Origin: Minisyncoccia bacterium
GTDB lineage: Bacteria > Patescibacteriota > Minisyncoccia > Phycocordibacterales > UBA918
Direction of reading: 5' to 3'
Length of the DNA stretch: 64,000 nucleotides
Assembly (NCBI GenBank): GCA_041742075.1
Contig: JBGSJJ010000010.1
Coordinates: forward strand, 165 to 64,164
Shown here: one piece after another, positions 3,344 through 47,674 of the stretch
Layout of the letters: each line of letters opens with the position of its first letter
Position numbering within the stretch: the first letter of the stretch is position 1
Translations under genes and position numbers: made by a program
The notes under the pieces: model-generated
The model's input: the letters and a program-made list of their open reading frames with translations, nothing else
What the model was told of the DNA's origin: nothing
The model's database searches: none

Positions 3344-3350
3344 CGCCTTC

Positions 3351-3394
3351 CGGCGCGGGCACACACTTCAGTGTTGCCCGCGCCGAATTTTTTA
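3351..3394 (+). terminator. Rho-independent terminator: 11-bp stem cggcgcgggca/tgcccgcgccg followed by a T-run
   Basis: Stem 3351-3361 / 3375-3385, then aatttttta. Confidence 0.6.
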
Positions 3395-3396
3395 CT

Positions 3397-3430
3397 TTAT
3401 AAAAAGCGGGGCGGCCAAAGGCCGCCCCGC
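3397..3430 (-). terminator. Terminator of the mscS gene: gcggggcggcc/ggccgccccgc stem with a T-run on the minus strand
   Basis: GC-rich 11-bp stem 3406-3416 / 3420-3430. The plus strand shows ttataaaaa 3397-3405. Confidence 0.7.
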
Positions 3431-3440
3431 TCTTACCCTC

Positions 3441-4352: not shown

Positions 4353-4494
4353 ACAATGAATACCATTGTACTACATCTACTCATGACCTATCGATATGGT
4401 CGGTGACCAGTAATTTACATATACCTGCAGACTTGCTAGTATCAAAACCAATTGCTCACCTGTTCCTTGTAAATAAATCCGAAGGAGGACCGTT

Positions 4495-30119: not shown

Positions 30120-31559
30120 CTAGTCTAGGCGACCAAAGAGATTTTCCGGTTTTTTATTGGTACGAACAGCTTCTTTGATGATTGTGCTTGTGTCAGGCAT
30201 AAGTGGGCTAAGATGACGTCCAATCAGATACAGATCGCGCACTAATGCCCGTATCAGTTCTTTGGCTTTTTCAGGTTCCGTCTTAATCAGTTTAAATGGT
30301 TCAGTGGTGGCAATCTGTTCATCAAGCTCACCAACCTTTTTCCACACACTGTCGCACGCCGTTTGTAGGTTATACGAATCAAAGGCTTCAGAAAAGTCAG
30401 TCTCGAACTGCCCTGATTCTGAACATTCGATGGGTGTTTCAAGATGCGTCTCGGCCATCTTCATAATACGCGCAACAAGGTTACCTAAGCCATTTACTAA
30501 GTTAGCTGTATACCACTCATCCATCCGCTCCCAGGTTAGGTCGGTATCCTCAAAGGGGTGTACGTGTCGTAAAAGAATATAACGCGTAGCGTCAGTGCCG
30601 TAACGAGCAATCAGTTCGTACGGAGAAATAACGTTGCCCAGGGACTTGCTCATCTTCTGTCCACCCGAGTTTATAAAACCATGATAATTCACCTGCTTGG
30701 TAGCTAGGACATCAGCACTTTTGAGCATCGCCTGCCACATAATAGACTGAAAACGTACTTGGTCTTTTCCACCCAGCTGAAGGGTGTGTCCATCAACCCA
30801 AAATTTCTTAAAGGTACCCTGTACATCCTCTGGCCAACCGAGGGTACTAATGTAGTTTGTAAGCGCATCAAACCATACGTACATCACTTGATTGACATCC
30901 CCTGGCACTGGCACTCCCCAATTGAGGCGTGTGCGTTCACGCGAAATACTAAAGTCTTCAAGTCCATTTTTAACAAACTCCAGTGCCCAGGTTCGTTGCC
31001 AGGCAGGTAAGATAACTGACTCATCGCTCAAGTATTCCTCAAGATAGCTTTGGTACTTAGAAAGAGCGAAGAAATAATTCTCTTCCTCTATCACTTGCGG
31101 CTCCATAGTTGGGTGGTTCGGACAACGACCTGCAACTAAATCACTATCGCGGAGAAACATCTCATCCCCCACACAATAGAGCCCCTTATAGGATTTTTTA
31201 TAGATGTCTCCTTTATCCAAACATTTCTGCCAAATAGCTTGCGCGGCCTTTTTGTGGTCAGCGTCAGTTGTTCTGATAAACCGGTCATAAGAAAGGTTGA
31301 GTCCGTCTTGTAACTTTCCAAACTCAGACGCAAAGTGATCAACATACGCTTGTCGATCCTGTCCAGCCTCGTCAGCCTTACCAGCTATCTTCTGACCATG
31401 CTCATCGGTACCGGTGTTGAAAAATACCTCATGACCAATGAGACGCCAGTAGCGAGCCAGTGCGTCTGCTACTACCACCTCATAGGCAAAACCAACATGC
31501 GGGTCAGCGTTGACGTATGGCAGAGTGGTAGTGATATAGCGGGATTGTTTATTGATCAT
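30120..31559 (-). CDS. metG: Methionine--tRNA ligase
   Basis: PYVNADPHVGF (HIGH-type) and KMSKSLGNV. Start at MINKQSRY. Confidence 0.9.
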   Translation of the reverse strand: MINKQSRYITTTLPYVNADPHVGFAYEVVVADALARYWRLIGHEVFFNTGTDEHGQKIAGKADEAGQDRQAYVDHFASEFGKLQDGLNLSYDRFIRTTDADHKKAAQAIWQKCLDKGDIYKKSYKGLYCVGDEMFLRDSDLVAGRCPNHPTMEPQVIEEENYFFALSKYQSYLEEYLSDESVILPAWQRTWALEFVKNGLEDFSISRERTRLNWGVPVPGDVNQVMYVWFDALTNYISTLGWPEDVQGTFKKFWVDGHTLQLGGKDQVRFQSIMWQAMLKSADVLATKQVNYHGFINSGGQKMSKSLGNVISPYELIARYGTDATRYILLRHVHPFEDTDLTWERMDEWYTANLVNGLGNLVARIMKMAETHLETPIECSESGQFETDFSEAFDSYNLQTACDSVWKKVGELDEQIATTEPFKLIKTEPEKAKELIRALVRDLYLIGRHLSPLMPDTSTIIKEAVRTNKKPENLFGRLD

Positions 31560-31721
31560 AATTTGATTTAAGCACATTGTACTATAGCAATAACACCGCC
31601 TTAGAGACAGGGCGAATTGCGAGACAGCTTCAATATAGCCCCAGCGCTCTTTATTTCATTCAACTCTAGCATATTTTTGCGTGGGTGGTATCGTAAATGA
31701 TGAAGGAGAAAGGAGGAGTTC

Positions 31722-32066: not shown

Positions 32067-32086
32067 GTTTGGCTCGCTTTTTATTA
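32054..32086 (+). terminator. Hairpin agcgagcca-ctaagtt-tggctcgct followed by ttttat
   Basis: 9-bp stem spanning the stop codon. Confidence 0.6.
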
Positions 32087-33466
32087 TTTTAGCAAAATGG
32101 CCAAGGTGTCGATACGGACTCGTTCCTGAGTACCTGTATCACGGTGTCGGACCGTGACCGTATCAAGGAGTGCTGGATTTTCACCGAGCGTATCAAAGTC
32201 AATGACGATGCAGTACGGGGTACCAATTTCGTCTTGACGACGGTAGCGCTTACCAATGTTGCCGTTGTCGTCGAAGGCTACATTTCCAAACTCTTTCTTG
32301 AGTAGCGAAAATACCTCGCGCGCTTTGGCTACCAGCTCTGGTTTATTCTTGAGAAGTGGTGAGACACACACCCGGTACGGAGCGAGGTGGACAGGCAACT
32401 TCAAGTAGGTACGTACTTCCCCGCCCATTTCGTCTTCGGTGTACGCTTCGCAGAGAACTGCCGTCAGCGCTCGTCCAACGCCAAACGAAGGTTCGAGCAC
32501 ATGTGGAATGAAGCGAGTGCCATCTGATTCTATATACTCTAAGCTCACTCCACTGGCTTCCTGATGACTCTTGAGGTCATGGTCAGTGCGGTACGCAAAA
32601 CCGGCAAGCTCATCGAAACCCTTGCCCGGATAATTGTACTCAAAGTCTATTGTCCGCTTACTGTAGTGGGCAAGATCATTTTCTGGTACCTCGTATTCTT
32701 TGACGTTTTGTCGAGCTAAACCAAGGTGGTCAAACCAAGTCCACATGTCTTTTCGGAGTGACTCAAAATACGTTTCCCAATCTTCTTCTTTAACAAAGTA
32801 CTCAATTTCCATTTGTTCAAACTCTCGCACTCGAAACAGAAACTCTCTTGGCGCTATTTCATTTCGAAACGCCTTACCAATCTGAGCTATGCCAAATGGC
32901 ATTTTTGGGCTCATGGAATCGACAACATTTTTGAAGTTCACAAAAATACCCTGTGCTGTCTCAGGTCGAAGGTACACTTTTCCATCAGGACCCGAAGTGG
33001 CACCAATAGTTGTCTCAAACATCATATTGAACTGCCGAGCCTTACTTAAAGGATTACCTTTCGGACTCTTAATACCATTTTCAGAAATGAGCGTGTCGAT
33101 TGCTTCCGGCGTAAGACCTTCAGCCGATATTCCAGCGTCTTTAAGAAGATGGTCGGCTCGAAAGCGTTCACCGGTTTCCGTATCTTCAACGAGTGGGTCA
33201 CAAAAACCAGCGCCAGTATGGCCAGAGGCTTCCCATACTTTTGCGTTCATTAAAATGGCGGCATTGAGGCCATACATGTCTTCCCTGTCGCTCACAAACA
33301 TTTTCCACCACTCACTCTTTATTTTGTCATTGAGGGCCGTACCAAGTGGACCTAAGTCCCAGGTACCTTTAAGGCCACCATATATATCACTACCTTGAAA
33401 CACAAAACCACGTCGCTTACACAGCGATACTACTTTCTCCATCACGTCAGGATTTTTTTCTGTCAT
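32084..33466 (-). CDS. glyQS: Glycine--tRNA ligase (alpha2 dimeric type)
   Basis: MEKVVSLCKRRGFVFQGSDIYGGLKGTWDLGPLG N-terminal signature and class II motifs. Confidence 0.9.
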   Translation of the reverse strand: MTEKNPDVMEKVVSLCKRRGFVFQGSDIYGGLKGTWDLGPLGTALNDKIKSEWWKMFVSDREDMYGLNAAILMNAKVWEASGHTGAGFCDPLVEDTETGERFRADHLLKDAGISAEGLTPEAIDTLISENGIKSPKGNPLSKARQFNMMFETTIGATSGPDGKVYLRPETAQGIFVNFKNVVDSMSPKMPFGIAQIGKAFRNEIAPREFLFRVREFEQMEIEYFVKEEDWETYFESLRKDMWTWFDHLGLARQNVKEYEVPENDLAHYSKRTIDFEYNYPGKGFDELAGFAYRTDHDLKSHQEASGVSLEYIESDGTRFIPHVLEPSFGVGRALTAVLCEAYTEDEMGGEVRTYLKLPVHLAPYRVCVSPLLKNKPELVAKAREVFSLLKKEFGNVAFDDNGNIGKRYRRQDEIGTPYCIVIDFDTLGENPALLDTVTVRHRDTGTQERVRIDTLAILLK

Positions 33467-33477
33467 ACAATCGTGAA

Positions 33478-35508
33478 TTATTCTTCAGCAACCACTTCTC
33501 CATTTTTTTCACCGAACCCAGCTTCAGCCGAAAGCGTCGTTGTGCGCTCACTAGCTACCGCCTGGACTGGCTTACCAGTAAACACATCAGTAGCTTGCAG
33601 GGTCTGGCGACTAAACAATACTGGTGTTGTACCAATTTGTGACACGCTTGGCAATATCGATACCTGGAAAGTAGCAGTTGCGTCTGTGTTGGCGCCAACT
33701 TCTCCCGGGGTCCAGGTTACTTGCTTGTTGGTTTGATTATATTCAAACTTACCATCACCAGAGGTTTTGTTTAGCCAGTTTACGTAAATTGGCAAATTCC
33801 CTATCACTCTCGTGGCGCGGATGTCATTTGTTTCATTATCAATACGGAGGGCAATGGTATACGTGGTCGTCTCGCCAACTTGTGGTGGTACCGGTCCAGT
33901 ATCTACCAAACCTTGTGTCTTTCGTTCAACGGCAGACACTAGACTCGTGACTCCGCCTACTCGAGCTGTTCGCTCTACGCTACCGAGTAGTTCTTCTGCC
34001 ACATTTGCTTCAGATACTCTTCTGGCAAAGACGTCAACTTTCACGTCAACAAAAGGATTTTTGAGAATGGCCGAATTGGGAAGAATATCGAACGAGAGAG
34101 TGATGTCATCACCCGGCTTTATTTCGGAAAATCGATTCATGTTCGCGACGTCCCATACCATGCGGTCAGCTTGTGACTCAAAGAAACCACTACCTCGTAT
34201 ACCTGAGTCTAAAAATGCATTACCTGAGAAGGTTGCAACCGCCCGCATGTCGTAGACTGAATCAGTAAGCGTGTTCCTTACATTTATTTTTCCAGAGACA
34301 TCAAGATCTCGACTAACACTAACTGTCCGGTCAGGCGATGAATTGAGTCTAACGTCGATGTCGATAAACGACGGCTCGATAGCAAACTCAGTGGCAGCGT
34401 TTGCAAACACTGAAGCGAAGGTATTTTTATCTCGATCATTTGGGATTCCAGCACTAAAGTTCATCACGTAGGTGTCATTATCTTGGCCGTCAATAACTCC
34501 GGTAATCGTAATGGTGTGACTAGAGCCTGGTTCAACGTTAGGAATCATCCAGGTATTGTTTCCGTCACTTGTTTCTGGAGTAGACCGCTTAAACTGAAAA
34601 CCAACTGGATATTCGGCTTTTACCAACACCTCGGAAACAGGTGACAAAGAGTTAGAGACCACGGTTAACGTGAGGCTTGTTTCTTGGCCTGAGGAAATAC
34701 TCTTCACTCCATCTACTTTAAAGGAAATCGGGGCAGAACTAATTCTAAAGGACTGCGGGTCAGCTTCTTTAAAGAAGCGCGCACCTGAACCTTGTACTTG
34801 GTACTCAATCGAAGCTTTGATTATTTTCTCCTCATTCTCTTCACCAAAGACAGCAATTTTAAGGGGCATATTGAGTGTCTCACCTGCCTTAATGGTTTCA
34901 AGCGGAATTCGTTCGGTAAACAGGTCACGCTTTTCATCGTCAGCTGACTTCGTACCGAGTGGGTATTCGATAATCAAGGTGGCTGACTCCATCGGGACAC
35001 TGTTGTCGTTCCGGACACCAACCTGAATCGGGAGTTCTTCACCACCACCAATCGTAAACGGAATGGTGAGGACAAGTGAAATGTTGTCACCAGAGATGCT
35101 GTTTCTTCCAAACACCAAAAAGAAACTCGACACGACCATAGCTAAGCCAAAAAATGCTACTCCGAGGAGCGCCAACTTCAATCGATAACCTCTTTTTTTT
35201 GGACCTTTCATAGAAAGCGTAGCTAGTGAAGGAGCATAGGTTTCAGGAACAATCTCAGCAATCGGAATTTCGTTGGCTGACTCTGATTCAGGAACAACAT
35301 GCCAGTCTGTCGGGACAGATTTATTTTCTTCTTGCTTTAGCTCGTGGTGCACATTACCGATACCAGAAGTACCACGTTGGTACAAACGATTGCGAAGCGC
35401 TTCTATGTTGTCAGAGTCTTTTATGCCACTCATACCACTATGGATTAAGTATACCTTATAAATGACTGGCCTCAGAAGCCGTCGCAGTGAGTTTAGTAAT
35501 GAGCGCAA
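33478..35508 (-). CDS. Large membrane-anchored surface protein with repeated beta-rich domains (start probably near 35433)
   Basis: N-terminal TM helix (LALLGVAFFGLAMVVSSFFLVF) and a long Thr/Ser/Val-rich ectodomain. The annotated 5' end overlaps recO. Confidence 0.55.
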   Translation of the reverse strand: MRSLLNSLRRLLRPVIYKVYLIHSGMSGIKDSDNIEALRNRLYQRGTSGIGNVHHELKQEENKSVPTDWHVVPESESANEIPIAEIVPETYAPSLATLSMKGPKKRGYRLKLALLGVAFFGLAMVVSSFFLVFGRNSISGDNISLVLTIPFTIGGGEELPIQVGVRNDNSVPMESATLIIEYPLGTKSADDEKRDLFTERIPLETIKAGETLNMPLKIAVFGEENEEKIIKASIEYQVQGSGARFFKEADPQSFRISSAPISFKVDGVKSISSGQETSLTLTVVSNSLSPVSEVLVKAEYPVGFQFKRSTPETSDGNNTWMIPNVEPGSSHTITITGVIDGQDNDTYVMNFSAGIPNDRDKNTFASVFANAATEFAIEPSFIDIDVRLNSSPDRTVSVSRDLDVSGKINVRNTLTDSVYDMRAVATFSGNAFLDSGIRGSGFFESQADRMVWDVANMNRFSEIKPGDDITLSFDILPNSAILKNPFVDVKVDVFARRVSEANVAEELLGSVERTARVGGVTSLVSAVERKTQGLVDTGPVPPQVGETTTYTIALRIDNETNDIRATRVIGNLPIYVNWLNKTSGDGKFEYNQTNKQVTWTPGEVGANTDATATFQVSILPSVSQIGTTPVLFSRQTLQATDVFTGKPVQAVASERTTTLSAEAGFGEKNGEVVAEE

Positions 35509-36040
35509 GGTCTTTTACTGAGGCATATTCATAGGCTTCTTTTATGGTGTTAGCTTGAATAATAGCCTGGAGCAATTCATGTTCTGCAATATAGCCCAAT
35601 TCCATTAAGGCGCGAAAATCTAAAAGGGTGGTAACGGTACGAGCATCAACGTCTGGTTCAGCCAAAATGAGCGCACAGCATTCTTCTATATCTCGGTAGA
35701 GTCGAGGAAGAGCAGATTCTCCATGTACAAAGCGACGGAGCAATTTCACCACATGCACTACCGCTGTCCGACGTACTCTATCGGTACTGGCGAAAAATGG
35801 ATTCTGCATTGCTTCCACACTCCCCACCCGCCAACCGCTTTTTCCTTTTACGAGCGATACCCGTACAAAAGAAAAATCTTGCAGGGCATGTCTCTGCCTA
35901 CTGCGCTCTTCACGAACACTCCTAGCAGTTGCCCAGAGCATACCGGCTTCTTTCGTAAAAAGCAGAAACGACTTGTCGGAAGTGTTATTCGGACGACTGC
36001 CACACACGAGTGCTTCAGTTGTATAGATTGCGTATGACAT
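35456..36040 (-). CDS. recO: DNA repair protein RecO (short form)
   Basis: N-terminal OB-fold pattern (ALVCGSRPNNTSDKSFLLFTKEAGMLWATARSVRE...LQDFSFVRVSL). Low-identity call. Confidence 0.6.
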   Translation of the reverse strand: MSYAIYTTEALVCGSRPNNTSDKSFLLFTKEAGMLWATARSVREERSRQRHALQDFSFVRVSLVKGKSGWRVGSVEAMQNPFFASTDRVRRTAVVHVVKLLRRFVHGESALPRLYRDIEECCALILAEPDVDARTVTTLLDFRALMELGYIAEHELLQAIIQANTIKEAYEYASVKDLALITKLTATASEASHL

Positions 36041-36064: not shown

Positions 36065-39000
36065 TTATTTTTTGGAGATGGCAATTGTAAATGAGTGTTC
36101 ACCCGCTAGGACTTCACTACCCGAGGTACTTTGAAACACCACATCGTCAGCACCAACTACTTTTTGGATTTCTGCTTTAAACTGGGTTATGAGTGATTCC
36201 CCACCTTCACTAGTTTGTACTGCCAGTACTATTCTGTCTTGTGGCTCCAGGCCAGCTGTCTTACGCGCCTCTTGAATAGCACGAATAAACTCACGAACAT
36301 CGCCTTCGTCTTTGAGCTCTGGGGTAATGGTCGTGTCTATTTCAACCATGTTGTGATCATCACCACGATAAGCAATTCCTTTTACATTGACCTCGCTCAT
36401 GATTATTTCTTCAAACAGTGGGTCAAACGGCGTCGCGACCGGTATCGTAATTTTAAGAAGTGGTTGCCTGACTTTTATGTTGGCTTTGGTACGAGCTTCA
36501 AGCGCACTTGAAACAGTAGTCCGCACTTCTTTCATGTGCATGAGGAGTTCAGAATCAATTAGACCGCCCTCTGGCCACGCCGAAAGGTGAACACTCTCTG
36601 CTTCATTCTCATCCTTTACTCTTTGCCAAAGGTACTCCGCATAAAACGGCATAGCCGGAGCCATCACGAGCGCAAGCTCTTTGAGCACAAAGCGAAGGGT
36701 GGCAAGAGCACGCGCTTTGTCTCCGGCGTCGTCAGACTTAACACGGTCGCGACTACGGCGCAGATACCAAACCGAGAGATCGTCGATGAAATCAGCAATT
36801 GGCCTGGTGGCTTTATCAAGTTCGTAATTTTGGTAACCAGCTGTAGACTCAGCGATGAGTTGGTAAAGGCGAGTGATAATCCACCTATCGAGTACGTTGT
36901 TCGAAGTAGCACTTGCTTTTGTGCCGTCCATGAACAACTCATACATAGCGAGCACGTTGTGCAGTCTACCGATATTTTTTCGTTGCAGTTCAAGGACTTC
37001 TTTCTCAGAAAAATTGAGGTCTTCACCGCGGATGATTGGTGAGGAGAGGAGGTAGTACCTCATGGCGTCAACCCCCACCCGGTCAGCAAGCTCCATCGGG
37101 TCGGGATAGTTCTTAAGTGACTTGCTCATTTTTTTGCCGTCTTCAGCTAACACCAACCCGTTGGTGATGACGTTCTTAAATGGTGCTCTGTCGAACAGAC
37201 CAACACCAAGCACCATCATGGAGTAGAACCAGCCGCGGGTTTGATCAACACTTTCTGAGATAAAGTTCGCGGGAAATCGAACTCCCTTAGCCGGGTTCGC
37301 TACTTCAAGATTTTCAAACGGATAGTGTGTCTCCGCGTACGGCATTGAGCCTGATTCAAACCAACAATCAAACACGTCGGGCACGCGTTCTAGCTTTGTG
37401 CCATCTGTATCGAAGAGTTCGATGTCGTCGATGTACGGTCGATGGTAATCGAGTTCAAAGTAATCATTATGAGGTACTGGCACAAACGGCAGTGGTCGCA
37501 CTTCAGCGTTTTTGAGGTAGCCGGCTTCTTTGAGCGCTACTGTCCGCACCATATCAGCACCCTCAGCCACACACTGCAGTCCGAAAACGGAGCTACCGTG
37601 ACCAATTAAGAGCGTGGTTTCGTTTTGGTGTGTAGCGTCATAGGTATAGAGAAAATCTCCCACGCGTTTTATTAGGTCACGGCGTAATTCCACACCGGGC
37701 AAGTGCTTAGTGAACTTCTCGGCCTCAGTCGCAAAGTTGGCGTTAAACTCAGCCCACGTCTTTCCTTCCCAAGTAGGGCCCACTTGAAACTCAATAATGC
37801 GCGCATCTTCAACAATCGCTTCAGCAGGCAAGCCGAGCTTACTCGCAACGAACTCCGCAGTCTCCCGACCTCGTTGTAATCCAGAATGGACAATTTTCGT
37901 TATTCCCTCATTTTTGAGTGTCTCTGCAATTGCTTCCGCCTGCTCCCGACCTTTTTCTGTCAAACCGTTTTCTGTACCTACTATCGAGTTTATCGCCCCA
38001 GTTAAGTTACTTTGTGCTTCGGCGTGTCGCGCGACGAAGTAGCGGTTATTTCGCTTTGGCAAATTCGCTTGTAACTCGGTCAATGAACCAAACACCTTAT
38101 ACTCACCAGTAGTTGGATTTTTCCAAATCGGAAGTGGTGCGCCCCAGTACCGTTGACGACTGACCGCCCAGTCACGTGCACCTTCAAGCCATTTTCCAAA
38201 ACGGTTACTGCCGACATGTTCGGGTACCCATGTCACTATATCGTTTTCTGCAACGAGTTTGTCTTTAAAGTCTGTTACGCGCACAAACCAAGAGGTAGTC
38301 GCGTAATTCAAAAGCGGTGTATCACAGCGCCAACAGTGAGGGTAGCTGTGTGTTATATTTTCCTTTTTGAATACTTTCCCGGCGTCTTGTAGTTTCTTCA
38401 AGACTTCAATGTCTGCATCAAGGTGCGAAACACCGGAGGACTCATCGTCCTTTGGCTTTACCAGACGGCAATTGAAGCCTTCGACAAATTCCAAAAAATG
38501 ACCGGAGTTATCGACGTGGTGCTTAATCGGCACATTGTTGGCCTGAGCCAGCTTCATGTCATCGTCACCATAGGCTGGCGCAATATGCACCGCTCCCGTT
38601 CCCTCAGAACCTAGCTCAACATAGTCTGCATGATAAATTTTCCAAGCATTTTCTTTACCTTCAAACTCCTGCTTTGTAAGGTACTCGAATGGTGGTTGAT
38701 AAGATTTGCCCACCAAATCGGCACCCATAATAGTTTCCAGTACCTCATGACTTTCATCACCTAAAAAAGCTAACCGCTCTTTGGCAATCACGAGCACCTC
38801 ATTTCCTACTTGGACTTTTACATACTCAAAATCATTATGGACGGCAGCCGCAAAGTTGCCTGGGAGTGTCCACGGTGTCGTTGTCCACACCAGCAGTGCG
38901 GTATTGGTAGCATTCCCTGACTCATCAAGCAGGGGTAGCTTTATCGTTACCGCTATATCCTTAATATCTTTGTACCCTTGGTTTACCTCAAAGTTTGACA

Positions 39001-39634
39001 ATGTGGTACCACAACGAGGACAGAGGTGCATCGTCTTGAACCCTTCATAGACGAGACCCTTTTTATTGAGTTCAGAAAATACCCACCAGACACTTTCGGT
39101 ATATGTACTATCCATCGTTTTATAATCATCTTCCATGTCTGCCCACCGACCCATGCGCGGAACCACCTTCTTCCACTCATCAGCGTACTCCATCACCGTG
39201 TCCCTGGCCGCTTCGTTAAAATTCTTTACGCCATATTCTTCAATGTCGCGCTTGGTCGCTAAACCAAGTTTTTTCTCAATCAAGTTCTCAAGCGGAAGTC
39301 CGTGACAATCCCAACCCCACTTCCGCCTGACGCTGTATCCCTGCATGGTCCAAAACCGCGGGATGGCATCCTTAATAGTACCCGCCAAAATATGTCCGTA
39401 GTGCGGTGTACCGGTGGCAAATGGCGGTCCATCATAAAAAACAAAATCACCTTTAGGCGAACTGCCTGCTGGTGTTTCAAGACTCTTCTTAAATGTATCG
39501 TGCTCAACCCAAAACTGCTGTATCGCTTCTTCACGAAGAGCTACTTCACTTTTGGTGCTGTTAGGTTCTACAGCAACCGTATCGTTTTCTCGATTTAATT
39601 GTTTACTCATACAATACGAATGTGTATCAGACAT
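36065..39634 (-). CDS. ileS: Isoleucine--tRNA ligase (type 2-like, 1189 aa) with an inserted histidine-phosphatase domain
   Basis: HYGH, the CP1 editing domain, WAVSRQRYWGAPLPIW and KMSKS. The stretch between PIW and KMSKS is about 330 aa against about 150 in typical IleS. Confidence 0.95.
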   Translation of the reverse strand: MSDTHSYCMSKQLNRENDTVAVEPNSTKSEVALREEAIQQFWVEHDTFKKSLETPAGSSPKGDFVFYDGPPFATGTPHYGHILAGTIKDAIPRFWTMQGYSVRRKWGWDCHGLPLENLIEKKLGLATKRDIEEYGVKNFNEAARDTVMEYADEWKKVVPRMGRWADMEDDYKTMDSTYTESVWWVFSELNKKGLVYEGFKTMHLCPRCGTTLSNFEVNQGYKDIKDIAVTIKLPLLDESGNATNTALLVWTTTPWTLPGNFAAAVHNDFEYVKVQVGNEVLVIAKERLAFLGDESHEVLETIMGADLVGKSYQPPFEYLTKQEFEGKENAWKIYHADYVELGSEGTGAVHIAPAYGDDDMKLAQANNVPIKHHVDNSGHFLEFVEGFNCRLVKPKDDESSGVSHLDADIEVLKKLQDAGKVFKKENITHSYPHCWRCDTPLLNYATTSWFVRVTDFKDKLVAENDIVTWVPEHVGSNRFGKWLEGARDWAVSRQRYWGAPLPIWKNPTTGEYKVFGSLTELQANLPKRNNRYFVARHAEAQSNLTGAINSIVGTENGLTEKGREQAEAIAETLKNEGITKIVHSGLQRGRETAEFVASKLGLPAEAIVEDARIIEFQVGPTWEGKTWAEFNANFATEAEKFTKHLPGVELRRDLIKRVGDFLYTYDATHQNETTLLIGHGSSVFGLQCVAEGADMVRTVALKEAGYLKNAEVRPLPFVPVPHNDYFELDYHRPYIDDIELFDTDGTKLERVPDVFDCWFESGSMPYAETHYPFENLEVANPAKGVRFPANFISESVDQTRGWFYSMMVLGVGLFDRAPFKNVITNGLVLAEDGKKMSKSLKNYPDPMELADRVGVDAMRYYLLSSPIIRGEDLNFSEKEVLELQRKNIGRLHNVLAMYELFMDGTKASATSNNVLDRWIITRLYQLIAESTAGYQNYELDKATRPIADFIDDLSVWYLRRSRDRVKSDDAGDKARALATLRFVLKELALVMAPAMPFYAEYLWQRVKDENEAESVHLSAWPEGGLIDSELLMHMKEVRTTVSSALEARTKANIKVRQPLLKITIPVATPFDPLFEEIIMSEVNVKGIAYRGDDHNMVEIDTTITPELKDEGDVREFIRAIQEARKTAGLEPQDRIVLAVQTSEGGESLITQFKAEIQKVVGADDVVFQSTSGSEVLAGEHSFTIAISKK
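37460..38050 (-). other. Histidine phosphatase (phosphoglycerate-mutase/GpmB-like) domain inserted in ileS (about residues 529-725)
   Basis: YFVARHAEAQSN (RHG-type catalytic His), LTEKGREQAEAIAETLKNEGITKIVHSGLQRGRETAEFVA and LLIGHGSSVFGL align colinearly with GpmB/SixA-family motifs. Confidence 0.75.
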
Positions 39635-39872
39635 TACTAATAGACGTACATGTATCAGACGTACAATTGTATCCTACCATTTTCTGACTGTATGAAAAGA
39701 AAGCGACCGCCTCAAGAGGAGGCGGTCGGTCGACGATTGGTTCGCACGTTTCGGGAGGTGGTGGCGGAGGCTCCAGCTGGCTTAAGAGTCGCCAGAACAA
39801 AAGTAGGTGCTCAAGCGTCACTTGGTAGAGCGAGTCGAGCACGCGAACAAGCACGCGAACGAATAGTTTCAT
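39627..39872 (-). CDS. Upstream ORF (81 aa) overlapping the ileS start. It contains PPPPPP and PPP runs and an embedded terminator hairpin.
   Basis: GGAGG sits 5 nt before the ATG. The stop overlaps the ileS ATG (ATGTCTGA). GC3-rich. Confidence 0.35.
   Translation of the reverse strand: MKLFVRVLVRVLDSLYQVTLEHLLLFWRLLSQLEPPPPPPETCEPIVDRPPPLEAVAFFSYSQKMVGYNCTSDTCTSISNV
39690..39726 (-). terminator. Intrinsic terminator (gaccgcctc/gaggcggtc 9-bp stem plus gctttcttttc) about 60-100 nt upstream of the ileS start codon, inside the uORF
   Basis: GC-rich stem followed by a T-run on the minus strand. Confidence 0.5.
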
Positions 39873-39903
39873 GGTGACCTCCGTTTTGGGTTGTGTATGT
39901 GTA

Positions 39904-40098
39904 TCACGCAACCTCGCGCAGGCGTGGATGAAGTACCACCTTCCCTTCGCGCACCCCTGCTCTCACCCTGGCTTCAAAGCGAGAGCGTTCGATCGCCTCT
40001 CGCTCTCTTTTGTTCAAGACACGAAAGATAACAACGGCACCAATACCTGCAAACCCAAGCAGGCACCATTCAAAAAACGATAACCCTTCTGCTTTCAT
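39904..40098 (-). CDS. Small TM protein with a basic tail (64 aa)
   Basis: The SD gggaga precedes it; one TM helix. Confidence 0.3.
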   Translation of the reverse strand: MKAEGLSFFEWCLLGFAGIGAVVIFRVLNKREREAIERSRFEARVRAGVREGKVVLHPRLREVA

Positions 40099-40290
40099 GT
40101 TCTGTCTCCCGGTAAGGTACGAGTACTCTCAAAAGATACGGCACCAAACCAGCAATGTCAAAGTCCGTTTAAAGTAAAAATAGGAAGAAACAAATGTTTA
40201 CTGATTCTTTTACGTTGTGCACTTTTACCCTATTGCCAGATACAATATTAGGAGTAGTATGTCACCCGGACAGTTCAGGAGACCAGATAG

Positions 40291-40817
40291 TGACTAAGAC
40301 GAAACGAACAGAAGTACTGAAAATTCGTTGTTCAGACGGCCGAAGCCGAAAACCAGGAGATATACGTGACAAATGGGTTCATGAAATTCGACTTCCCGGA
40401 GGAATTCTCTTCCCAAACCTTTGTGCACAATCTTTCCTAGAAAGATGTGAGCAGACTTTTGAGATGAGTGCTCTGGTTGACGATGAGATACAAAGCCGAT
40501 TCCACATCCTCATAGAATCCATCACACCAGAAACTGGACTGGTGATTGGCGAGATAATTGTTTTGCTCGCTATAAAAACCATGATGGATTTGAAGCAGGT
40601 CGAAGAAATTATTCTTGTGTACCATACCCATTGTGGAGCTGGCGACGCACTTGGTTTGAAAGAGTCAGATATCTACGACATCTGTCTCAAGTGGCAGTTT
40701 CTACTGTGTAAGCTGTATCCCGTTAGGATTCGGATTCTTAAGGAAGAGCATTCTGTCTGTGGCGAACATCACTTTGGCCACAGTGAGCTTAACCAAAGCT
40801 ACCCTGAAGTAGCTTAG
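40291..40817 (+). CDS. Beta-carbonic-anhydrase-like protein (possible GTG start; track ORF begins at 40194)
   Basis: CSDGR (compare CxDxR) and VYHTHCGAG (compare HxxCG) motifs. Adjacent SulP transporter. Confidence 0.45.
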
Positions 40818-40874: not shown

Positions 40875-42566
40875 ATGATGACACTAGCTGTTGTGAAAGG
40901 ACACATTAAAGCCAATTGGCAACCAGCGCTCACTGTTGCTCTTATTTCGGTACCACTTTCAATCGCACTTTCAATCGCTTCAGGTGCTGGACCATTACCT
41001 GGTCTTATTGCAGGCATCTGGGGTACCGTAATAGGAAGTATCTTCATTGGAAGCAATTACAACATCATTGGTGCAGCTGGGGCTCTCACTACAGTACTCT
41101 TTGGTGCCACTCTAGCAGCACCACTCGGTCTAGGGTCAGCAGTATTACCAATTCTTGCCCTCACGACTGGACTTATTGTATTTGCTGTCTGGCTTCTCAA
41201 GCTTGACCGTTATTTATACTATATACCCTCAAGTGTCATGTATGGTTTTGCTGGAGGAGTAGCTATTTTAATAGCAGCTTCACAGCTTTTTGATGCTACC
41301 GGACTTTCTACCCTGGCCCGCACAGGTCATTTAGTTGGTGATGTCGAGAAATTTATTGAAAATAGCGCCCTTATTCATACCCCTTCACTCAGTGTCTTTT
41401 TTGTATTTTTAGCTGGAATCCTAGTTTGGAAACGATTTATTAAGAAAGTTCCCGCCGTAATTCCAGCTGCTCTTTTGGGTATCTTATTTGGGTATCTCGA
41501 ATCAACTCGTTTTAGTTTCGACATTTTTTCTCTACAAGATAAATTTGGTACCTTTACTGCTACACTACAACTCCCGGTGGCCTGGTCAGCGATTCCTGAA
41601 CTTGTTTCAAACGCAACGGCTCTCAGTTGGATTGTGAGTATTTCAGGCACGATTGCACTCATAGCTGTTCTTGAAACACTGATCACCGCCAAACTAGGAG
41701 ACAAGCTTACAAAAACTGAGTCTTCTTCTTCTCGTGAACTACTAGGACTAGCACTGGCCAATCTTGGTTCTGGCGCTATGGGAGGACTACCTGCAACAGG
41801 GGTATTTATTCGAACTGGCGCCAACATCAAGGCAGGTGCTACACATCGAACCAGTGGAATCCTAGCGGCACTCTTTACTGGTGGTATTGCTCTTTTAGTA
41901 CTACCATTTTTCTCCTACGTACCGATGCCTGTCATTGCTGCAATTTTGGTAAATACCGCGCTCGGACTACTTGAAATAGATAAATTTGTTGAGTACTGGC
42001 AACACGAGCGTGAAAGTTTTGTGGTAGCTATTTTAGTTGCTCTGGTAACTATCTTTCACGACGCAGGACTAGGTGTAGCACTTGGTGCAGTAGTAGCACT
42101 ACTCTTATTTGCTAAACGCGTTGCCCATGGACGTTTTGATATTACTTGGAATTTTAACGATGGAACAATTGAAACTCATCGTGGTAAGAAAACCCTCACA
42201 TTTTCAACCAGCGAAAAAACTATCACTGTCGTTACCTATAGTATTGCCGGAAACTTTGGCTACATTGATGCCAATCAACACCTACTGAATTTGAAGAAAT
42301 TAGCTCACGAAAAAAGTGTACCCGCAGTTATCATTAGATTGCGTGATCTTTTTTCTCTTGATTTTGAAGGATGTGAGGCGCTAGGAGAAGCGGTAACTGA
42401 ACTGCAGGCAAAAAATACGACTGTTTTTATAAGTTCTACTTCTACCCATATTGAAGAAACGCTTACTGCCTTTCCAGTCTTTGCTAAGCTTCAAGAAGCT
42501 AGCTACTTTACAAAAAAAACAAGTGATGCATTGGCACGAGCGAAAGCTTTATACAATCACCAATAA
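40875..42566 (+). CDS. SulP-family anion (sulfate/bicarbonate) transporter with a C-terminal STAS domain
   Basis: Polytopic N-terminus and a STAS-like C-terminus (TVVTYSIAGNFGYIDANQHLLNLKKLAH...). Confidence 0.85.
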   Translation: MMTLAVVKGHIKANWQPALTVALISVPLSIALSIASGAGPLPGLIAGIWGTVIGSIFIGSNYNIIGAAGALTTVLFGATLAAPLGLGSAVLPILALTTGLIVFAVWLLKLDRYLYYIPSSVMYGFAGGVAILIAASQLFDATGLSTLARTGHLVGDVEKFIENSALIHTPSLSVFFVFLAGILVWKRFIKKVPAVIPAALLGILFGYLESTRFSFDIFSLQDKFGTFTATLQLPVAWSAIPELVSNATALSWIVSISGTIALIAVLETLITAKLGDKLTKTESSSSRELLGLALANLGSGAMGGLPATGVFIRTGANIKAGATHRTSGILAALFTGGIALLVLPFFSYVPMPVIAAILVNTALGLLEIDKFVEYWQHERESFVVAILVALVTIFHDAGLGVALGAVVALLLFAKRVAHGRFDITWNFNDGTIETHRGKKTLTFSTSEKTITVVTYSIAGNFGYIDANQHLLNLKKLAHEKSVPAVIIRLRDLFSLDFEGCEALGEAVTELQAKNTTVFISSTSTHIEETLTAFPVFAKLQEASYFTKKTSDALARAKALYNHQ

Positions 42567-42862: not shown

Positions 42863-44548
42863 CTACATCCGTTCGGGAGCTTTGATGGCGAGTGCCCAAA
42901 GACCGTTTTTAAGGGTTAGACGGACGGCATCAGCGACCATTGCCTTGTAGGGTGCATAGGTGTCAGTCGCGTCAGCAATTTTTTCGTGTGCGTAAAAAGT
43001 ATTAAAGGAGCCTGCCAGCTCAGTTAAATACCCTACCACCTTGTGCGGGGCTCTTTCGTTCCAGGCTTCGGTAACTACCTCTTCGAACCTATACAAAAGT
43101 TTTTCTACCTCGTAGGCTTCTTCCGGAGCAATGATGCTTATAAGTGACACACCAGACACCTCGGCTTTTTCTAAAACAGAAACAATCCGCGCATGGGTAT
43201 ACATGAGGTAGGGTCCAGAGTCACCCTCAAAGGAAAGGGCTCGTTCTTTGTCAAAGACTGAATCCTGCAAAATACTCCCCCGAAGTGTCGCGTACTTAAT
43301 TGCCCCAAGCGCTATTGCCTCACTGAGCTCAGGACTAGCGTCAGTAAAACCAGTACTCACGATTTTCTCGTGCGCTGTCTCGGCTATCTCTTGTATAAAC
43401 TCGAGAGCCGGAATCACGTCACCGGTTCGAGAAGACATCTTACCGGTTGCGAGCCGCACCGTGCCGTGTCCGATGTGTTCAGTTTTCATAGCGAGCTCAG
43501 GATACACAAAACTCATGGCCATCTTGAGCACCTTAAAGTATTCAGTTATTTCGTTTGAGGTAGAAATGATGGAATGGTCGTAGCCACCCAGTCGCTCGGC
43601 TTTTTCATTGGCTAAAGCGAGTTCTTTCGCTTCATAGGTCGGCAAGCCTTCTTTGTTTAAAAACACCCGCGTATGGAGTCCGTACTTTTCACCTTGAAAA
43701 ACATGCGCTCCTTCACTTTCGGTAAATACTTCCGGGTGGGCGAGCACGAGCTCCTTACCCTTAGGGCCAGTTTCGCTTTCAAAAAAGTACTCATCAAACT
43801 GGGTGTCGATAACCTTATAAATTGTTTCAAAGTACGCGAGTGAAATTGCCCGACCGGCATCATAGAGTGCATTAACACCGTCGTCGGTCCGGTCGTAGAT
43901 TTTTTTGTTGAGAGCTCTAATGGCTTCAGCCGGTTCACCACCCTCTTTGTAGGCATTTGCACCATACGCATACGCGCGTCCTAAGTCTTTGGCTGTAAAC
44001 GCACTGTCAGTACTGATACCAAGCGCCTGCATGCCGTAGATGGCATGCGCAACATGAAGCCCAACGTCACCTTGATAGTTTACCCGCTTCACCTCAGCAC
44101 CTTGCATCATTGCCAACCTTGCAATACTCTCACCAACGGAGTTGGTAAAAAGATGTCCGATATGAAACTCTTTAAATGGATTCGGGTCAGTGTATTCAAC
44201 CACGATCCGCTTCCCTGCCCACTCTTTATTGGTACCCCACGCGTCACCCATTTCACGTGCTCGTGCAATTTCAGCCGTAAAAAAATCACGCGTGAGATAG
44301 AAGTTTAAAAACCCTGGACCAGCTACTTCTACCCGATCAACATACTCGATTTGACCAGCGATTATACCGGCAATTTGTTCCGCAATCACCCGCGGTGGCT
44401 GACCTATATCGCTCGCCAAAACCAAAGCGACATTGCACGCGAAATCTCCATGGTGAAGATCGCTGGGGTGCGATACGGTAAAAGCCACATCGGGAAAACC
44501 GAGCTCACCTAGTGTGTCTTTAATTGCTGTGGCGATAACCTGCTTCAT
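42863..44548 (-). CDS. argS: Arginine--tRNA ligase
   Basis: Add-1 N-domain, FHIGHL, and the C-terminal anticodon-binding end ...PERM. Start at MKQVIATAIKD. Confidence 0.9.
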   Translation of the reverse strand: MKQVIATAIKDTLGELGFPDVAFTVSHPSDLHHGDFACNVALVLASDIGQPPRVIAEQIAGIIAGQIEYVDRVEVAGPGFLNFYLTRDFFTAEIARAREMGDAWGTNKEWAGKRIVVEYTDPNPFKEFHIGHLFTNSVGESIARLAMMQGAEVKRVNYQGDVGLHVAHAIYGMQALGISTDSAFTAKDLGRAYAYGANAYKEGGEPAEAIRALNKKIYDRTDDGVNALYDAGRAISLAYFETIYKVIDTQFDEYFFESETGPKGKELVLAHPEVFTESEGAHVFQGEKYGLHTRVFLNKEGLPTYEAKELALANEKAERLGGYDHSIISTSNEITEYFKVLKMAMSFVYPELAMKTEHIGHGTVRLATGKMSSRTGDVIPALEFIQEIAETAHEKIVSTGFTDASPELSEAIALGAIKYATLRGSILQDSVFDKERALSFEGDSGPYLMYTHARIVSVLEKAEVSGVSLISIIAPEEAYEVEKLLYRFEEVVTEAWNERAPHKVVGYLTELAGSFNTFYAHEKIADATDTYAPYKAMVADAVRLTLKNGLWALAIKAPERM

Positions 44549-44647
44549 ATCGACCACTATAGCAAAAGAAAATAAAAAACGCTCACACAAGGTTTGTGTG
44601 GCGGTTTCAGGATGCGAGCGGAGACGCTGTCTCCGCTCGCAACTGGT

Positions 44648-45037: not shown

Positions 45038-46204
45038 CTACTCTACCCTTGAAATAAGCCCGCGTTTCGGGGTTTCCCCACTGCCAGCCACAGTAAAGGT
45101 TTCGTGACCGAGCACCTGCCCGCGTCCGGTCTCCACACTACAACGCCAGGTACCTGGCTGATGACTCGTTACAAAACTATAGCCTCGATACCCACCGTCT
45201 CCTCCACCGAAGATCGGGTACTCTACTTTGGCATGCTCTACCCAGTCTCCATCAGCATTTTTGTATTCCCAGGTATGGAAGATTTTGGTATTAAGTTTGG
45301 TAGGCGCAAACACACTCGCAAAGCAGTACACGCTTGGTGCCTGACTCGGATAAAAGGTGGTATCAGAATTCGTAAACGGCTTCCACCAGACTGGATCAAC
45401 CCACTTGAGTTGGTACGTATTATTTTCAAACTTGACCACACTGTGGTACACCCCGAGTTCCTTGAGTGAGAGTGGTATGGGAGGGATGATGTTGGCAAAA
45501 TAGAGAAAATTAAAACCCACAAAAATTGCTCCTAAAGTAAGTACGACTGCCCGTGTCTGCAACTCCATAAAACGCGGTATCACTCGGTAGAGTAATTGGA
45601 TAAACCAGTACATGAGAGTGAGCGCGATAAATCCACTCCCCACAAACACCCAGGCTCCCATATAGCCCGTGACTACCGGCACCAACAGTACGATGTATGA
45701 CATCAGACCAACAAACAAAATCGCCAGGTTGTAAATCAGTCGTGACGCACGGTCTTTAATGACTTCGTTTCCAATAATAGCCGCCAGTATCATGAGGAGA
45801 AATGGCCAGCTCTCAAGCCACGCACCGCTTCGACCATAAAAAATAAGCATACCGGAAAGCAACCCACCAAAAGAAAATTGCACCAACAGAGGTAGGTACC
45901 TCCGTCCATAGTGAGAAAGCTTTTCTGGAAGTTTTCCTGCCACGCTGGCGTACAAAAGTAGGATAGACACCATTGAAAGCAACACGTAGGAAGCAAGAAT
46001 AAAATTATCAAACGCTTCGTCAACACGATTCAGCGTAAGATTGTCAACCAAAAATCCAAAAAAGAACGACAGACTCATCCAATGGCGTCGTAGCTGAGCT
46101 AAACGGTTTGAAGACTTTTTAGGTGTTTCTTCTTCTGTAGTAAGAACCGGTGTATCCATAGTTGTCATTGTACTAGAAAGTACCCAATAAAAAAAAGGCC
46201 GCAC
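45038..46204 (-). CDS. Polytopic membrane protein with a C-terminal extracytoplasmic beta-rich domain
   Basis: About 8 TM helices, then a soluble C-terminus. Confidence 0.55.
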   Translation of the reverse strand: MRPFFYWVLSSTMTTMDTPVLTTEEETPKKSSNRLAQLRRHWMSLSFFFGFLVDNLTLNRVDEAFDNFILASYVLLSMVSILLLYASVAGKLPEKLSHYGRRYLPLLVQFSFGGLLSGMLIFYGRSGAWLESWPFLLMILAAIIGNEVIKDRASRLIYNLAILFVGLMSYIVLLVPVVTGYMGAWVFVGSGFIALTLMYWFIQLLYRVIPRFMELQTRAVVLTLGAIFVGFNFLYFANIIPPIPLSLKELGVYHSVVKFENNTYQLKWVDPVWWKPFTNSDTTFYPSQAPSVYCFASVFAPTKLNTKIFHTWEYKNADGDWVEHAKVEYPIFGGGDGGYRGYSFVTSHQPGTWRCSVETGRGQVLGHETFTVAGSGETPKRGLISRVE

Positions 46205-46405
46205 GCAAGCGCACGGCCGAAGTTTAGGGAGGAAACGCCCGTAGGGCGTATATGATGCACCGCATCACGTCTGTACCATATACCAATTTTAATTCCTTGG
46301 CAAGAAAATAGACCACCGTGGTCACCCTACTCAAAAAGGTATACAGGGAACGGGACGGGCGAGACAAAGTCTCGCCCGTCCCGTTCCAGCCTTTGCGCCC
46401 GCTCT

Positions 46406-47674
46406 TTAGGTATGTACCTCCGGTACCGGAAACGCTTCACACATGGCTTGTACTTCTTTTTGTAGAGTAGCCTTTTTAGCACTATCATCTTTGGCTCTCA
46501 TGGTTTCAATCATAATTTCTGCCAACCGCGTCGCTTCTTTCTCCATCATCTTCCGCGTGGTCATCGCTGGAGTACCAAACCGAATTCCCGACGGATCCAT
46601 GGCTGTTCGCGTGTCGCCCGCAATCATGTTTTTGTTAAGCGTAATACCCACCTCATCGAGTACCGTCTCTGCTTCAACTCCGGTCACCCCGAGTGAGCTA
46701 TACACGTCTGCTAACAATAAGTGATTATCAGTACCGCCACACAGTAAGCGTACGCCCTCGTTCTTAAACACTGCTTCCATCGCTTTAGCGTTTTTAAGTA
46801 TCTGACCGGCATACGTTTTAAAGACTGGCGTGAGCGCCTCGCCAAACGCCACTCCCTTAGCAGCGATAATGTGCATGTGCGGGCCACCTTGAATACCTGG
46901 AAACACTGCCTTGTTTACTCGCTTAGCAATATCTTCATTTTCTCGAACGAGAATCATTCCGCCCCGTGGACCACGCAGTGTCTTGTGGGTAGTAGTCGTT
47001 ATCACATCAAAACCATAATCAAACGGATTTTTCGCGACTCCCCCAGCGATAAGACCGGCGATGTGCGCCATGTCAGCTACCGCGTAGGCTCCCACTTCCC
47101 GTGCAATGTCGACAAACTTTTGGTAATCGAGTTCGCGACTATAGGCAGAAAAACCAGCTAAGATAATCTTTGGCTTATGCTCGAGCGCGGTCGCCCTGAG
47201 TGCCTCAAAGTCAATCTCTCCAGTATCGGCGTCTTTCATCTGATAGCGCACGAACTTGAAGATTTTGTTTATCCACGTCGTTGGGTGTCCATGTGTGAGG
47301 TGTCCGCCGTGTGAGAGATCCATCCCGAGCACCGTATCCCCCGGTTCCATAAGTGCAAAGTACATGGCCATATTGGCAGCCGCACCACCGAGCGGTTGCA
47401 CGTTGGCAAACTTTGCTTTAAAAAGTTCTTTCGCTCGCTCAATCGTGATGGTCTCCATAAGGTCGGTGAATTCTTGTCCACCATAGTAGCGACGGCCCGG
47501 GTACCCTTCGGAATACTTGTTGGTAAAAATGGAACCATTGGCTTCGAGCACTGCTCTTGAGACATAGTTTTCACTCGGAATAAGTTCTATCCCTCGCGCT
47601 TCTCGTGCCTCTTCGCCGAGTAGAGTCGCGTATAGTTCTGGGTCTTGGGCCTTTATGAATTTGTAGTTTTGCAT
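46406..47674 (-). CDS. glyA: Serine hydroxymethyltransferase
   Basis: PLP-lysine region TTTHKTLRGPRGG and overall SHMT collinearity. Confidence 0.95.
   Translation of the reverse strand: MQNYKFIKAQDPELYATLLGEEAREARGIELIPSENYVSRAVLEANGSIFTNKYSEGYPGRRYYGGQEFTDLMETITIERAKELFKAKFANVQPLGGAAANMAMYFALMEPGDTVLGMDLSHGGHLTHGHPTTWINKIFKFVRYQMKDADTGEIDFEALRATALEHKPKIILAGFSAYSRELDYQKFVDIAREVGAYAVADMAHIAGLIAGGVAKNPFDYGFDVITTTTHKTLRGPRGGMILVRENEDIAKRVNKAVFPGIQGGPHMHIIAAKGVAFGEALTPVFKTYAGQILKNAKAMEAVFKNEGVRLLCGGTDNHLLLADVYSSLGVTGVEAETVLDEVGITLNKNMIAGDTRTAMDPSGIRFGTPAMTTRKMMEKEATRLAEIMIETMRAKDDSAKKATLQKEVQAMCEAFPVPEVHT

Follow-up and report, generated by a model that had tools for sequence, protein, structure and literature searches.

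A predicted histidine phosphatase inserted into the CP3 loop of type-2 isoleucyl-tRNA synthetases of Patescibacteria

Introduction

Aminoacyl-tRNA synthetases (aaRSs) are among the best-studied enzymes, and the domains inserted into them, such as editing and zinc modules, have been informative on translational quality control. Those known so far act on aminoacyl-tRNA or break down aminoacyl esters, and to our knowledge no phosphomonoesterase insert in an aaRS has been described. Here we analyse the isoleucyl-tRNA synthetase (IleRS) gene, ileS, in a stretch of 64,000 nucleotides from a Minisyncoccia bacterium, a member of the ultra-small Patescibacteria (NCBI assembly GCA_041742075.1, contig JBGSJJ010000010.1, positions 165 to 64,164 of the forward strand), referred to as the window. 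A sequence-only reading of the window had proposed that this synthetase contains an internal domain with the histidine phosphatase fold.

The subdomains of IleRS are named CP1 to CP3, as in PMC7955072. In the yeast enzyme CP3 comprises residues 459-526, and the linker between CP2 and CP3 (residues 453-465) forms part of the pocket of reveromycin A, which is placed at the tRNA(Ile) binding site (PMC7955072). The zinc motif of Thermus thermophilus IleRS is carried by CP3 (PMC7191050), and the Rossmann folds of aaRSs are recognised hosts of insertions (PMC13114784). The searchable full-text literature yielded no description of an IleRS with an embedded histidine phosphatase, in keeping with the sequence-only reading, which was not aware of any described aaRS with an embedded phosphatase.

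Results

Position of the insert in the synthetase

Alignment of the window protein with the IleRS structures 7d5c, 8wnd and 6ldk places an inserted segment at a surface loop of about 7 residues (yeast 491-499) between the two CP3 helices (Table 1). Residues 449-491 of yeast IleRS (7d5c) correspond to residues 482-524 of the window protein and yeast residues 499-613 to residues 729-846, so that the 204 residues in between stand against about 7 in the yeast linker and the net gain is about 197 residues. The Pfam match to tRNA-synt_1 is split by a match to His_Phos_1, its N-terminal piece covering residues 38-531 and profile positions 2-273. The phosphatase domain is thus internal to the synthetase rather than fused to one of its ends. 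In sister enzymes that lack the insert, the very same place is taken by a short linker. The loop lies about 26 residues past the CP2-CP3 linker. In many homologs it separates a zinc knuckle (CxxC...CxCGG) into its two halves, but the window protein has lost the cysteines of this knuckle. The G+C content of the insert (about 0.50) shows no shift from the rest of ileS (0.45-0.52).

The main points of the description in the sequence-only reading agree with these data: besides the insertion itself and the gain of about 197 residues, the interval it named (37460-38050) is exactly residues 529-725, the three motifs it quoted are present at residues 532-543, 558-597 and 675-686, and the spacing of about 330 residues between WGAPLPIW and KMSKS is matched by a measured distance of about 331. 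Its protein length of 1189 aa is correct for the open reading frame (ORF) but needs amending for the protein, which probably has 1181 aa and begins at M9.

Family, fold and catalytic residues

The insert matches Pfam His_Phos_1 (PF00300) with 92.9 bits in the context of the whole protein (E=2.7e-26) and with 97.5 bits alone (E=1e-27), far above the gathering threshold of 21.7. Together with an alpha/beta fold like that of phosphoglycerate mutase (PGM) and the catalytic set described below, this match places the insert in branch 1 of the PGM-family histidine phosphatases, the family to which the sequence-only reading had assigned it. In the AlphaFold model of the full-length protein (predicted local distance difference test (pLDDT) 83.4, predicted template modelling score (pTM) 0.74), residues 530-720 approximately are modelled at pLDDT 90-98 and the junctions of the insert at about 88-97. 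The domain modelled separately reaches a pLDDT of 97.0 and a pTM of 0.92 and is thus predicted to form a domain of its own, one of the checks that the sequence-only reading had suggested.

The structural-neighbour figures are 21.4 for PhoE, 21.3 for the riboflavin-pathway histidine phosphatase 9mmh, 20.6 for glucosyl-3-phosphoglycerate phosphatase and 19.8 for CobC, whereas the protein-phosphatase branches are clearly more distant (SixA 15.2, PGAM5 14.5, Sts-2 14.2). A ranking of the relatives by sequence comparison agrees with the structural one. Membership in the characterised subfamilies was rejected: PspA has the closest fold, but the insert scores 65.4 bits against a cutoff of 350 (NF045917), and CobC, the alpha-ribazole phosphatase, gives 68 bits against 162.9 (TIGR03162). 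The insert stays below the equivalog cutoff of SixA (TIGR00249) and does not have its minimal, uncapped fold of about 155 aa, and the mutase models score 56.6 against 225 (dPGM_arch), 45.2 against 261 (GpmB) and 22.2 against 316 (PRK01295). As every NCBIfam equivalog cutoff is missed (PspA, CobC, GpmB, dPGM, SixA), we regard the insert as a member of the superfamily that belongs to none of its characterised subfamilies. Of the 194 positions of the Pfam profile the match extends to 163, leaving the C-terminal part of the profile unmatched.

The residues of the catalytic set (Table 1) are each invariant in 121 of 121 sequences of 65-100% identity, namely R536, H537, N543, R588, E615 and H679. 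Among 98 distant domains, down to about 36% identity, the RH pair is kept in 94 of the 94 aligned, the second arginine in 95 of 97, the second histidine in 97 of 97 and the glutamate in 91 of 98, with aspartate in a further 4. Position 538 varies, being alanine in 97 and glycine in 24 of the close set, and glycine in 85 and alanine in 5 of the distant set. The sequence-only reading had considered activity doubtful because the motif is RHA and not RHG. This doubt can be dropped: RHA is found in 97 of 121 close homologs, and the characterised phosphoserine phosphatase PspA (4ij5) also reads RHAES, for which reason we take RHA to be a harmless variant. To judge from its sequence, the insert is a complete and apparently active histidine phosphatase, and we read it as an autonomous PhoE-like phosphomonoesterase module.

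The host enzyme

The window protein passes the equivalog test for ileS (TIGR00392) with 862 bits at a cutoff of 621.4. Its closest PDB entries are 9w01, 8c8v and 1ile (human cytosolic IleRS, Priestia IleRS2 and T. thermophilus IleRS; E about 1e-197 to 1e-199), whereas IleRS1 of Staphylococcus aureus (1ffy) reaches only 1e-87, and it carries a C-terminal DUF5915 domain (PF19302, 77.9 bits), which is typical of IleRS2. On account of these relatives and of DUF5915 we assign it to type 2 (IleRS2). The class I motifs and the CP1 motif can be read from the translation, and HYGH, TTTPWT and KMSKS are invariant or nearly so across 120 homologs. An NCBI gene call on the same contig (P0001) has 1181 aa and is 100% identical to the window IleRS; as M9 is also invariant among the homologs, the true start of ileS is probably M9 at 39610.

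Table 1. Features of the window, with positions counted from its first letter and residues from the first codon of the ileS ORF
Feature	Residues	Position	Strand	Remarks
ileS ORF		36065..39634	-	1189 aa; stop codon inside coordinates; continuous frame; type-2 (eukaryote/archaea-like) IleRS
N-terminal IleRS part	34-524	38063..39535	-	first Rossmann half, CP core, CP1 editing domain, CP2, first CP3 half
HYGH (HIGH-type) motif	78-81	39392-39403	-	first Rossmann half
TTTPWT	251-256	38867-38884	-	CP1 editing domain
WGAPLPIW	497-504	38123-38146	-	first CP3 half
GSLTEL		38072-38089	-	first CP3 half
Inserted segment	525-728	37451..38062	-	replaces the CP3 loop
Folded histidine phosphatase domain	531-716	37487..38044	-	alpha/beta
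His_Phos_1 envelope	533-695	37550-38038	-	Pfam
RHAEAQSN	536-543	38006..38029	-	R536 phosphate-binding, H537 nucleophile, N543 conserved
R588	588	37871..37873	-	second phosphate-binding Arg, in HSGLQRGRETA
E615	615	37790..37792	-	position of the family's catalytic Glu (general acid/base), in EFQVG
H679	679	37598..37600	-	second catalytic His, in IGHGSS
Downstream catalytic part		36935..37450	-	second CP3 half, second Rossmann half, KMSKS loop, stem-contact fold
DYHRPYIDD		37424-37450	-	second CP3 half
DVFDCWFESGS		37346-37378	-	second Rossmann half
KMSKS loop	835-839	37118-37132	-	
Anticodon-binding domain and DUF5915	916-1062 and 1009-1188	36071..36889	-	Pfam
23S rRNA gene		1-2452	-	5' two-thirds, cut by window edge
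MetRS		30120-31577		
Class II aaRS		32084-33466		
DUF11 protein		33478-35508		large, surface-type
RecO		35456-36040		
SulP/STAS transporter		40875-42566		
ArgRS		42863-44590		
SHMT		46406-47674		

Distribution in Patescibacteria

PF00300 is present in all of the 120 top homologs (65-80% identity), which bear the names Patescibacteria, Paceibacteria, Parcubacteria and Kaiserbacteria. Among the best 150 matches (50%-identity representatives) from an exhaustive search across 1.84 billion cluster representatives, about 96 carry the domain, down to about 36% identity with the query. A GTDB scan with each species represented by one genome gave at least 583 related loci; the phosphatase lies inside ileS in 80 of the best 80, all of them Patescibacteria (Paceibacteria, Nomura-, Adler-, Taylor-, Zambryski- and Wolfebacteria, Minisyncoccia) and one of them the closed chromosome CP060229.1. 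No separate His_Phos ORF lies within 3 kb on either side of ileS at any of these 80 loci. The same architecture recurs in hundreds of protein clusters from NCBI, JGI, ENA and Logan, and the IMG/VR viral contigs yielded no IleRS with the insert. The Peregrinibacteria protein KKP39778.1, from the GW2011 genomes of 2015, has the insert as well, so that the architecture spans distant lineages of the candidate phyla radiation (CPR) and has been public for years, labelled only as IleRS. The insert is a feature of the Patescibacteria lineage and not a peculiarity of one genome.

In Peregrinibacteria GW2011_GWA2_33_10 (cluster P0149) the annotation divides an insert-bearing ileS into two neighbouring ORFs (KKP37996.1 and KKP37997.1; 658 and 543 aa), which could be due either to a sequencing frameshift or to a genuine split near the insert. 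The sole match of a homology search with the insert only (371 candidates), P0121 of 176 aa, seemed to be a stand-alone relative and was rejected as a frameshift-broken ileS. Its source is an ENA long-read contig (L001), on which the broken, insert-bearing ileS (2593-4757) adjoins phage capsid and portal genes and could be a prophage or phage-borne copy.

Presence and absence of the insert

For 83 insert-bearing and 51 insert-less enzymes, we took the insert columns out of the alignment and built a neighbour-joining tree from the IleRS core. The two kinds are interleaved, and a single insert-bearing clade was not recovered; as the deep branches are very short and the tree was made without bootstrapping, we trust only close sister pairs. 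Nine such pairs (56-68% core identity) consist of one member with a domain of about 190 residues and one with a short linker in the same loop. Both states exist within Peregrinibacteria and also within Parcubacteria, and insert-less enzymes occur in Parcubacteria/Komeilibacteria. The sequence-only reading had asked how widespread the insert is among relatives and whether all of them have an ordinary segment of the same length: the insert is widespread in Patescibacteria yet patchy, and the clean insert-less sisters have a short linker. Their existence implies that aminoacylation does not need the phosphatase domain.

About half of the enzymes in either class, with or without the insert, retain the CP3 zinc cysteines, and the host core shows no sign of adaptation to the insert. 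The domain evolves faster than its host, its mean identity to the query in the close set being 60%, compared with 77% for the core, and its mean p-distance in the distant set 0.71, compared with 0.54. Insert and core co-diverge only weakly (Mantel r=0.23, reached by 0 of 999 permutations), which we ascribe to distances that are nearly saturated at such depth; both vertical inheritance and replacements would fit this result. That the catalytic residues are kept while the rest drifts to 29% identity points to selection on catalysis, with the fold preserved, and across hundreds of Patescibacteria lineages these residues are under strong purifying selection.

Further insertion sites and companion domains

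Mapping of the embedded domains against the landmark motifs of IleRS, followed by a check with Pfam, places the histidine phosphatase at no fewer than three sites of IleRS2. Site A is the CP3 loop, where the tRNA-synt_1 profile breaks at about position 273; the window protein has its copy here, as do no fewer than 70 of the 98 representatives. Site B falls between DxWFDSG and KMSKS (profile break 314-327) and holds the domain of P0166, P0180, P0201 and P0233 and the first copies of P0214 and P0250. Site C follows the complete catalytic domain (profile position 412 of 414) and precedes Anticodon_1; it is used by P0226, P0241 and P0215 and by the second copies of P0157, P0214 and P0250. In enzymes with a copy at site B or C only, CP3 is short and ordinary. 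The catalytic residues are invariant across the domains of all three sites, and where one IleRS has two copies they are intact in both. P0171 is also among the relatives that show this multi-site or two-copy pattern.

Longer IleRS2 relatives from CPR bacteria (1380-1860 aa) embed further enzyme domains: a GNAT acetyltransferase in P0233, P0264 and P0201, a Ser_hydrolase (PF06821) or alpha-beta hydrolase in P0215, and a NUDIX domain in the N-terminal half of P0229 (residues 226-343). Membership of the window protein in the family NF040702 was rejected, as it scores 316.8 bits against a cutoff of 1999 and has no GNAT domain; the GNAT-bearing relatives are below this cutoff too (241-292 bits), and P0215 and P0229 are likewise outside the family. 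The other aaRSs of the window (MetRS, ArgRS and a class II enzyme) have no extra domain, being of normal length with standard aaRS Pfam domains only. The same applies to GluRS and a class Ic enzyme in a related locus (L082), which are of ordinary size with standard domains.

Neighbourhood of ileS and other features of the window

Translation-related genes cluster around ileS between 28236 and 47674 (Table 1). Upstream of ileS, at 39635-40190, the G+C content rises to 0.58 (39700-39999; window mean about 0.45). This stretch harbours a proline-rich ORF of 94 aa (39627-39911, minus strand) that is unlikely to be real, and no tRNA or Rfam family was found within 39635-40190. The ORF at 40194-40817 (plus strand, 207 aa) is without a Pfam match.

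The 23S rRNA gene uses 2452 bases for 2007 model positions and hence has about 445 extra bases, among them a 73-nt insertion near model position 230 or so; rRNA insertions are known in CPR bacteria. Between a DUF2914 gene and the SHMT gene, the Rfam family suhB/mmgR (RF00519) matches at 46182-46254 on the minus strand (58.8 bits, gathering threshold 41). The family has been described from alphaproteobacteria, and the match, unexpected in Patescibacteria, may be a structural look-alike. The small subunit of ribonucleotide reductase (60001-61314, minus strand) has an N-terminal ATP-cone domain, which is more usual on the large subunit, and in the adjacent large subunit (58279-59973) the Pfam barrel model is matched in three separate stretches.

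Discussion

The architecture described here is visible in precomputed Pfam annotations, and the corresponding records carry no label beyond IleRS or "class I tRNA ligase family protein". We rate the synthetase with an inserted accessory domain as a known kind of protein and the phosphatase nature of that domain as its new element. We tentatively favour the explanation that the insert is an active phosphatase module in the CP3 loop of IleRS2 that is probably coupled to IleRS function; whether the tethering to IleRS serves a functional purpose is, in our judgement, about evenly balanced. By analogy with the family, His537 would attack the terminal phosphate held by Arg536, Arg588 and His679, and a phospho-histidine intermediate would form, from which Glu615-assisted water would release the phosphate. 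The capped pocket, which resembles those of PspA and PhoE, points to a small phosphomonoester or terminal nucleotide rather than a folded protein as the substrate. The module could act locally on a phosphorylated ligand that is linked to IleRS activity, and candidate targets are a 2'- or 3'-(pyro)phosphorylated acceptor end of tRNA, a phosphorylated nucleotide by-product or adenylate-site inhibitor, and a phospho-serine on IleRS itself.

Several observations argue for such a coupling. The domain is found at three sites of one host protein, with duplicate intact copies, and no such inserts were seen in other aaRSs of the same genomes. The NUDIX, GNAT and hydrolase domains that accompany it all have nucleotide or acyl groups as their targets. 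The insertion is about 26 residues away from the linker that contributes to the tRNA/reveromycin pocket, and its patchy, fast-evolving distribution is typical of accessory or conflict-related functions. In addition, enzymatic domains fused to aaRSs usually act on the substrates or products of these enzymes, as editing domains and LysX do. The phosphatase would then be one of several swappable accessory enzymes (histidine phosphatase, GNAT, NUDIX, serine hydrolase) that CPR bacteria have grafted around the catalytic half of IleRS. A bolder version, which we consider unlikely, holds that the IleRS of CPR bacteria is a platform for a swappable small-molecule-modifying cassette, an immunity embedded in its own target that would inactivate IleRS-directed inhibitors or reverse toxin modifications on site and of which the phosphatase would be the commonest member. 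The toxins in question could be RelA/SpoT homologs, which (pyro)phosphorylate the 3' end of tRNA.

The strongest competing explanation, which we regard as quite possible, is that the insert is a hitch-hiking general phosphatase, an ordinary broad-specificity or metabolic enzyme that acts on free cytosolic metabolites (phosphoserine, sugar phosphates, nucleotides) without any link to isoleucylation. It assumes that the loops of IleRS2 tolerate insertions and that the streamlined genomes of CPR bacteria favour fusions, and a number of results speak for it and weigh against a coupled function. In fold and sequence the insert is nearest to small-molecule phosphatases of the PspA, PhoE and CobC type, and the nearest relatives outside IleRS are stand-alone proteins annotated as "broad specificity phosphatase PhoE". 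Apart from the catalytic residues, distant embedded copies are no closer to one another (29% identity) than to stand-alone PspA (28%). Given this generic similarity and the PhoE-type relatives, nothing in the pocket marks an IleRS-specific substrate, and the conservation is limited to the catalytic residues of the whole family. Sharp co-variation with the insert is seen at none of the positions of the IleRS core, the best associations being probably phylogenetic, and the frequent loss of the insert implies that the phosphatase function is not essential. Furthermore, aaRSs are generally favoured hosts of domain insertion (PMC13114784), and the presence of several unrelated enzyme families (GNAT, NUDIX, hydrolase) in IleRS loops could mark a permissive landing pad. 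The comparison with other synthetases covers the aaRSs named above, the window having no ValRS or LeuRS gene. Still, chance capture alone hardly explains why the same family has been fixed at three sites, sometimes in two intact copies, and the remaining aaRS genes observed in these genomes have no such inserts. A stand-alone copy beside ileS is likewise missing in 80 genomes (within 3 kb on either side only), and the usual functional relation of aaRS-fused enzymes to their host does not favour a mere passenger.

HipA/HipT-like toxin kinases inactivate GltX and TrpS by phosphorylation of the KMSKS/ATP-loop type. The insert could accordingly be imagined as a cis-acting protein phosphatase that frees IleRS of an inhibitory phosphate, carried for example by a serine within or close to the KMSKS/ATP-binding loop, and so counters kinases of this type. 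All three insertion sites flank the catalytic half that bears KMSKS, and the patchy accessory distribution would suit a conflict-related function. However, we know of no described kinase that is directed at IleRS, no kinase gene was seen beside ileS in the window, and we consider this explanation improbable.

Even less probable is a non-catalytic role, in which the domain would be a structural brace that replaces the CP3 zinc knuckle or a ligand-sensing regulatory module. The loss of the CP3 cysteines in the window protein and the junctions, whose pLDDT suggests a fixed orientation in the model, would be in line with it. Against it, every catalytic residue is kept over a divergence that takes the remainder down to 29% identity, and the occurrence of the zinc cysteines in about half of either class of enzymes means that the insert is no substitute for the knuckle. 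The idea that the insert contributes to glycolysis as a cofactor-dependent phosphoglycerate mutase (dPGM/GpmA-like) is very hard to reconcile with the data: membership in the PGM superfamily and weak matches to the dPGM_arch and GpmB models are set against mutase scores far below every equivalog cutoff, phosphatases as top structural neighbours and an unmatched C-terminal part of the profile (dPGMs need a C-terminal tail). An assembly chimera or a mis-called ORF that joins two genes has a negligible probability, since the reading frame is continuous, the G+C content of the insert is that of the gene, and the architecture recurs in 80 of 80 independent GTDB species genomes and in hundreds of clusters.

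An intact phosphatase conserved across a major bacterial radiation, established independently at three positions of one enzyme and accompanied by GNAT, NUDIX and hydrolase domains, points to an unrecognised accessory chemistry on isoleucylation in organisms that are not yet culturable alone. Should its target be the tRNA end, a ligand of the adenylate site or IleRS itself, the module would represent a new kind of synthetase-linked repair or resistance. If it is a mere passenger, it would be a natural example of an essential enzyme that tolerates the insertion of whole enzymes. For CPR genomics, a hit to the phosphoglycerate mutase family may turn out to be located within ileS, and metabolic reconstructions should not take it for a step of glycolysis.

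Among the known systems, the IleRS2 enzymes 1ILE, 8C8U/8C8V (Priestia megaterium) and yeast 7D5C, which are of the mupirocin-tolerant type, share the full architecture of the window protein, with HIGH-type and KMSKS motifs, CP1 with its T-rich motif, CP2, CP3, the anticodon-binding domain and DUF5915. They differ from it in that they have a loop of about 7 residues where CP3 of the window protein is interrupted by an enzyme domain of about 197 residues and has lost the cysteines of its zinc knuckle. PspA/iPSP1 of Hydrogenobacter thermophilus (4IJ5) and PhoE of Geobacillus stearothermophilus (1H2E/1EBB) are only 25-26% identical to the insert and are free proteins of about 200 aa, whereas the window phosphatase is embedded in another enzyme. 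The editing and fused modules of aaRSs, such as CP1, INS and the LysRS-MprF fusion LysX, likewise place an extra catalytic domain inside or on a synthetase, and so does the curated NCBIfam family NF040702 (ileS_w_GNAT), an IleRS family with an acetyltransferase domain. A Nudix domain and a branch-1 histidine phosphatase are joined in one polypeptide in mycobacterial MutT1 (Rv2985; 9CXX, 3FJY), and P0229 has the same pair inside an IleRS.

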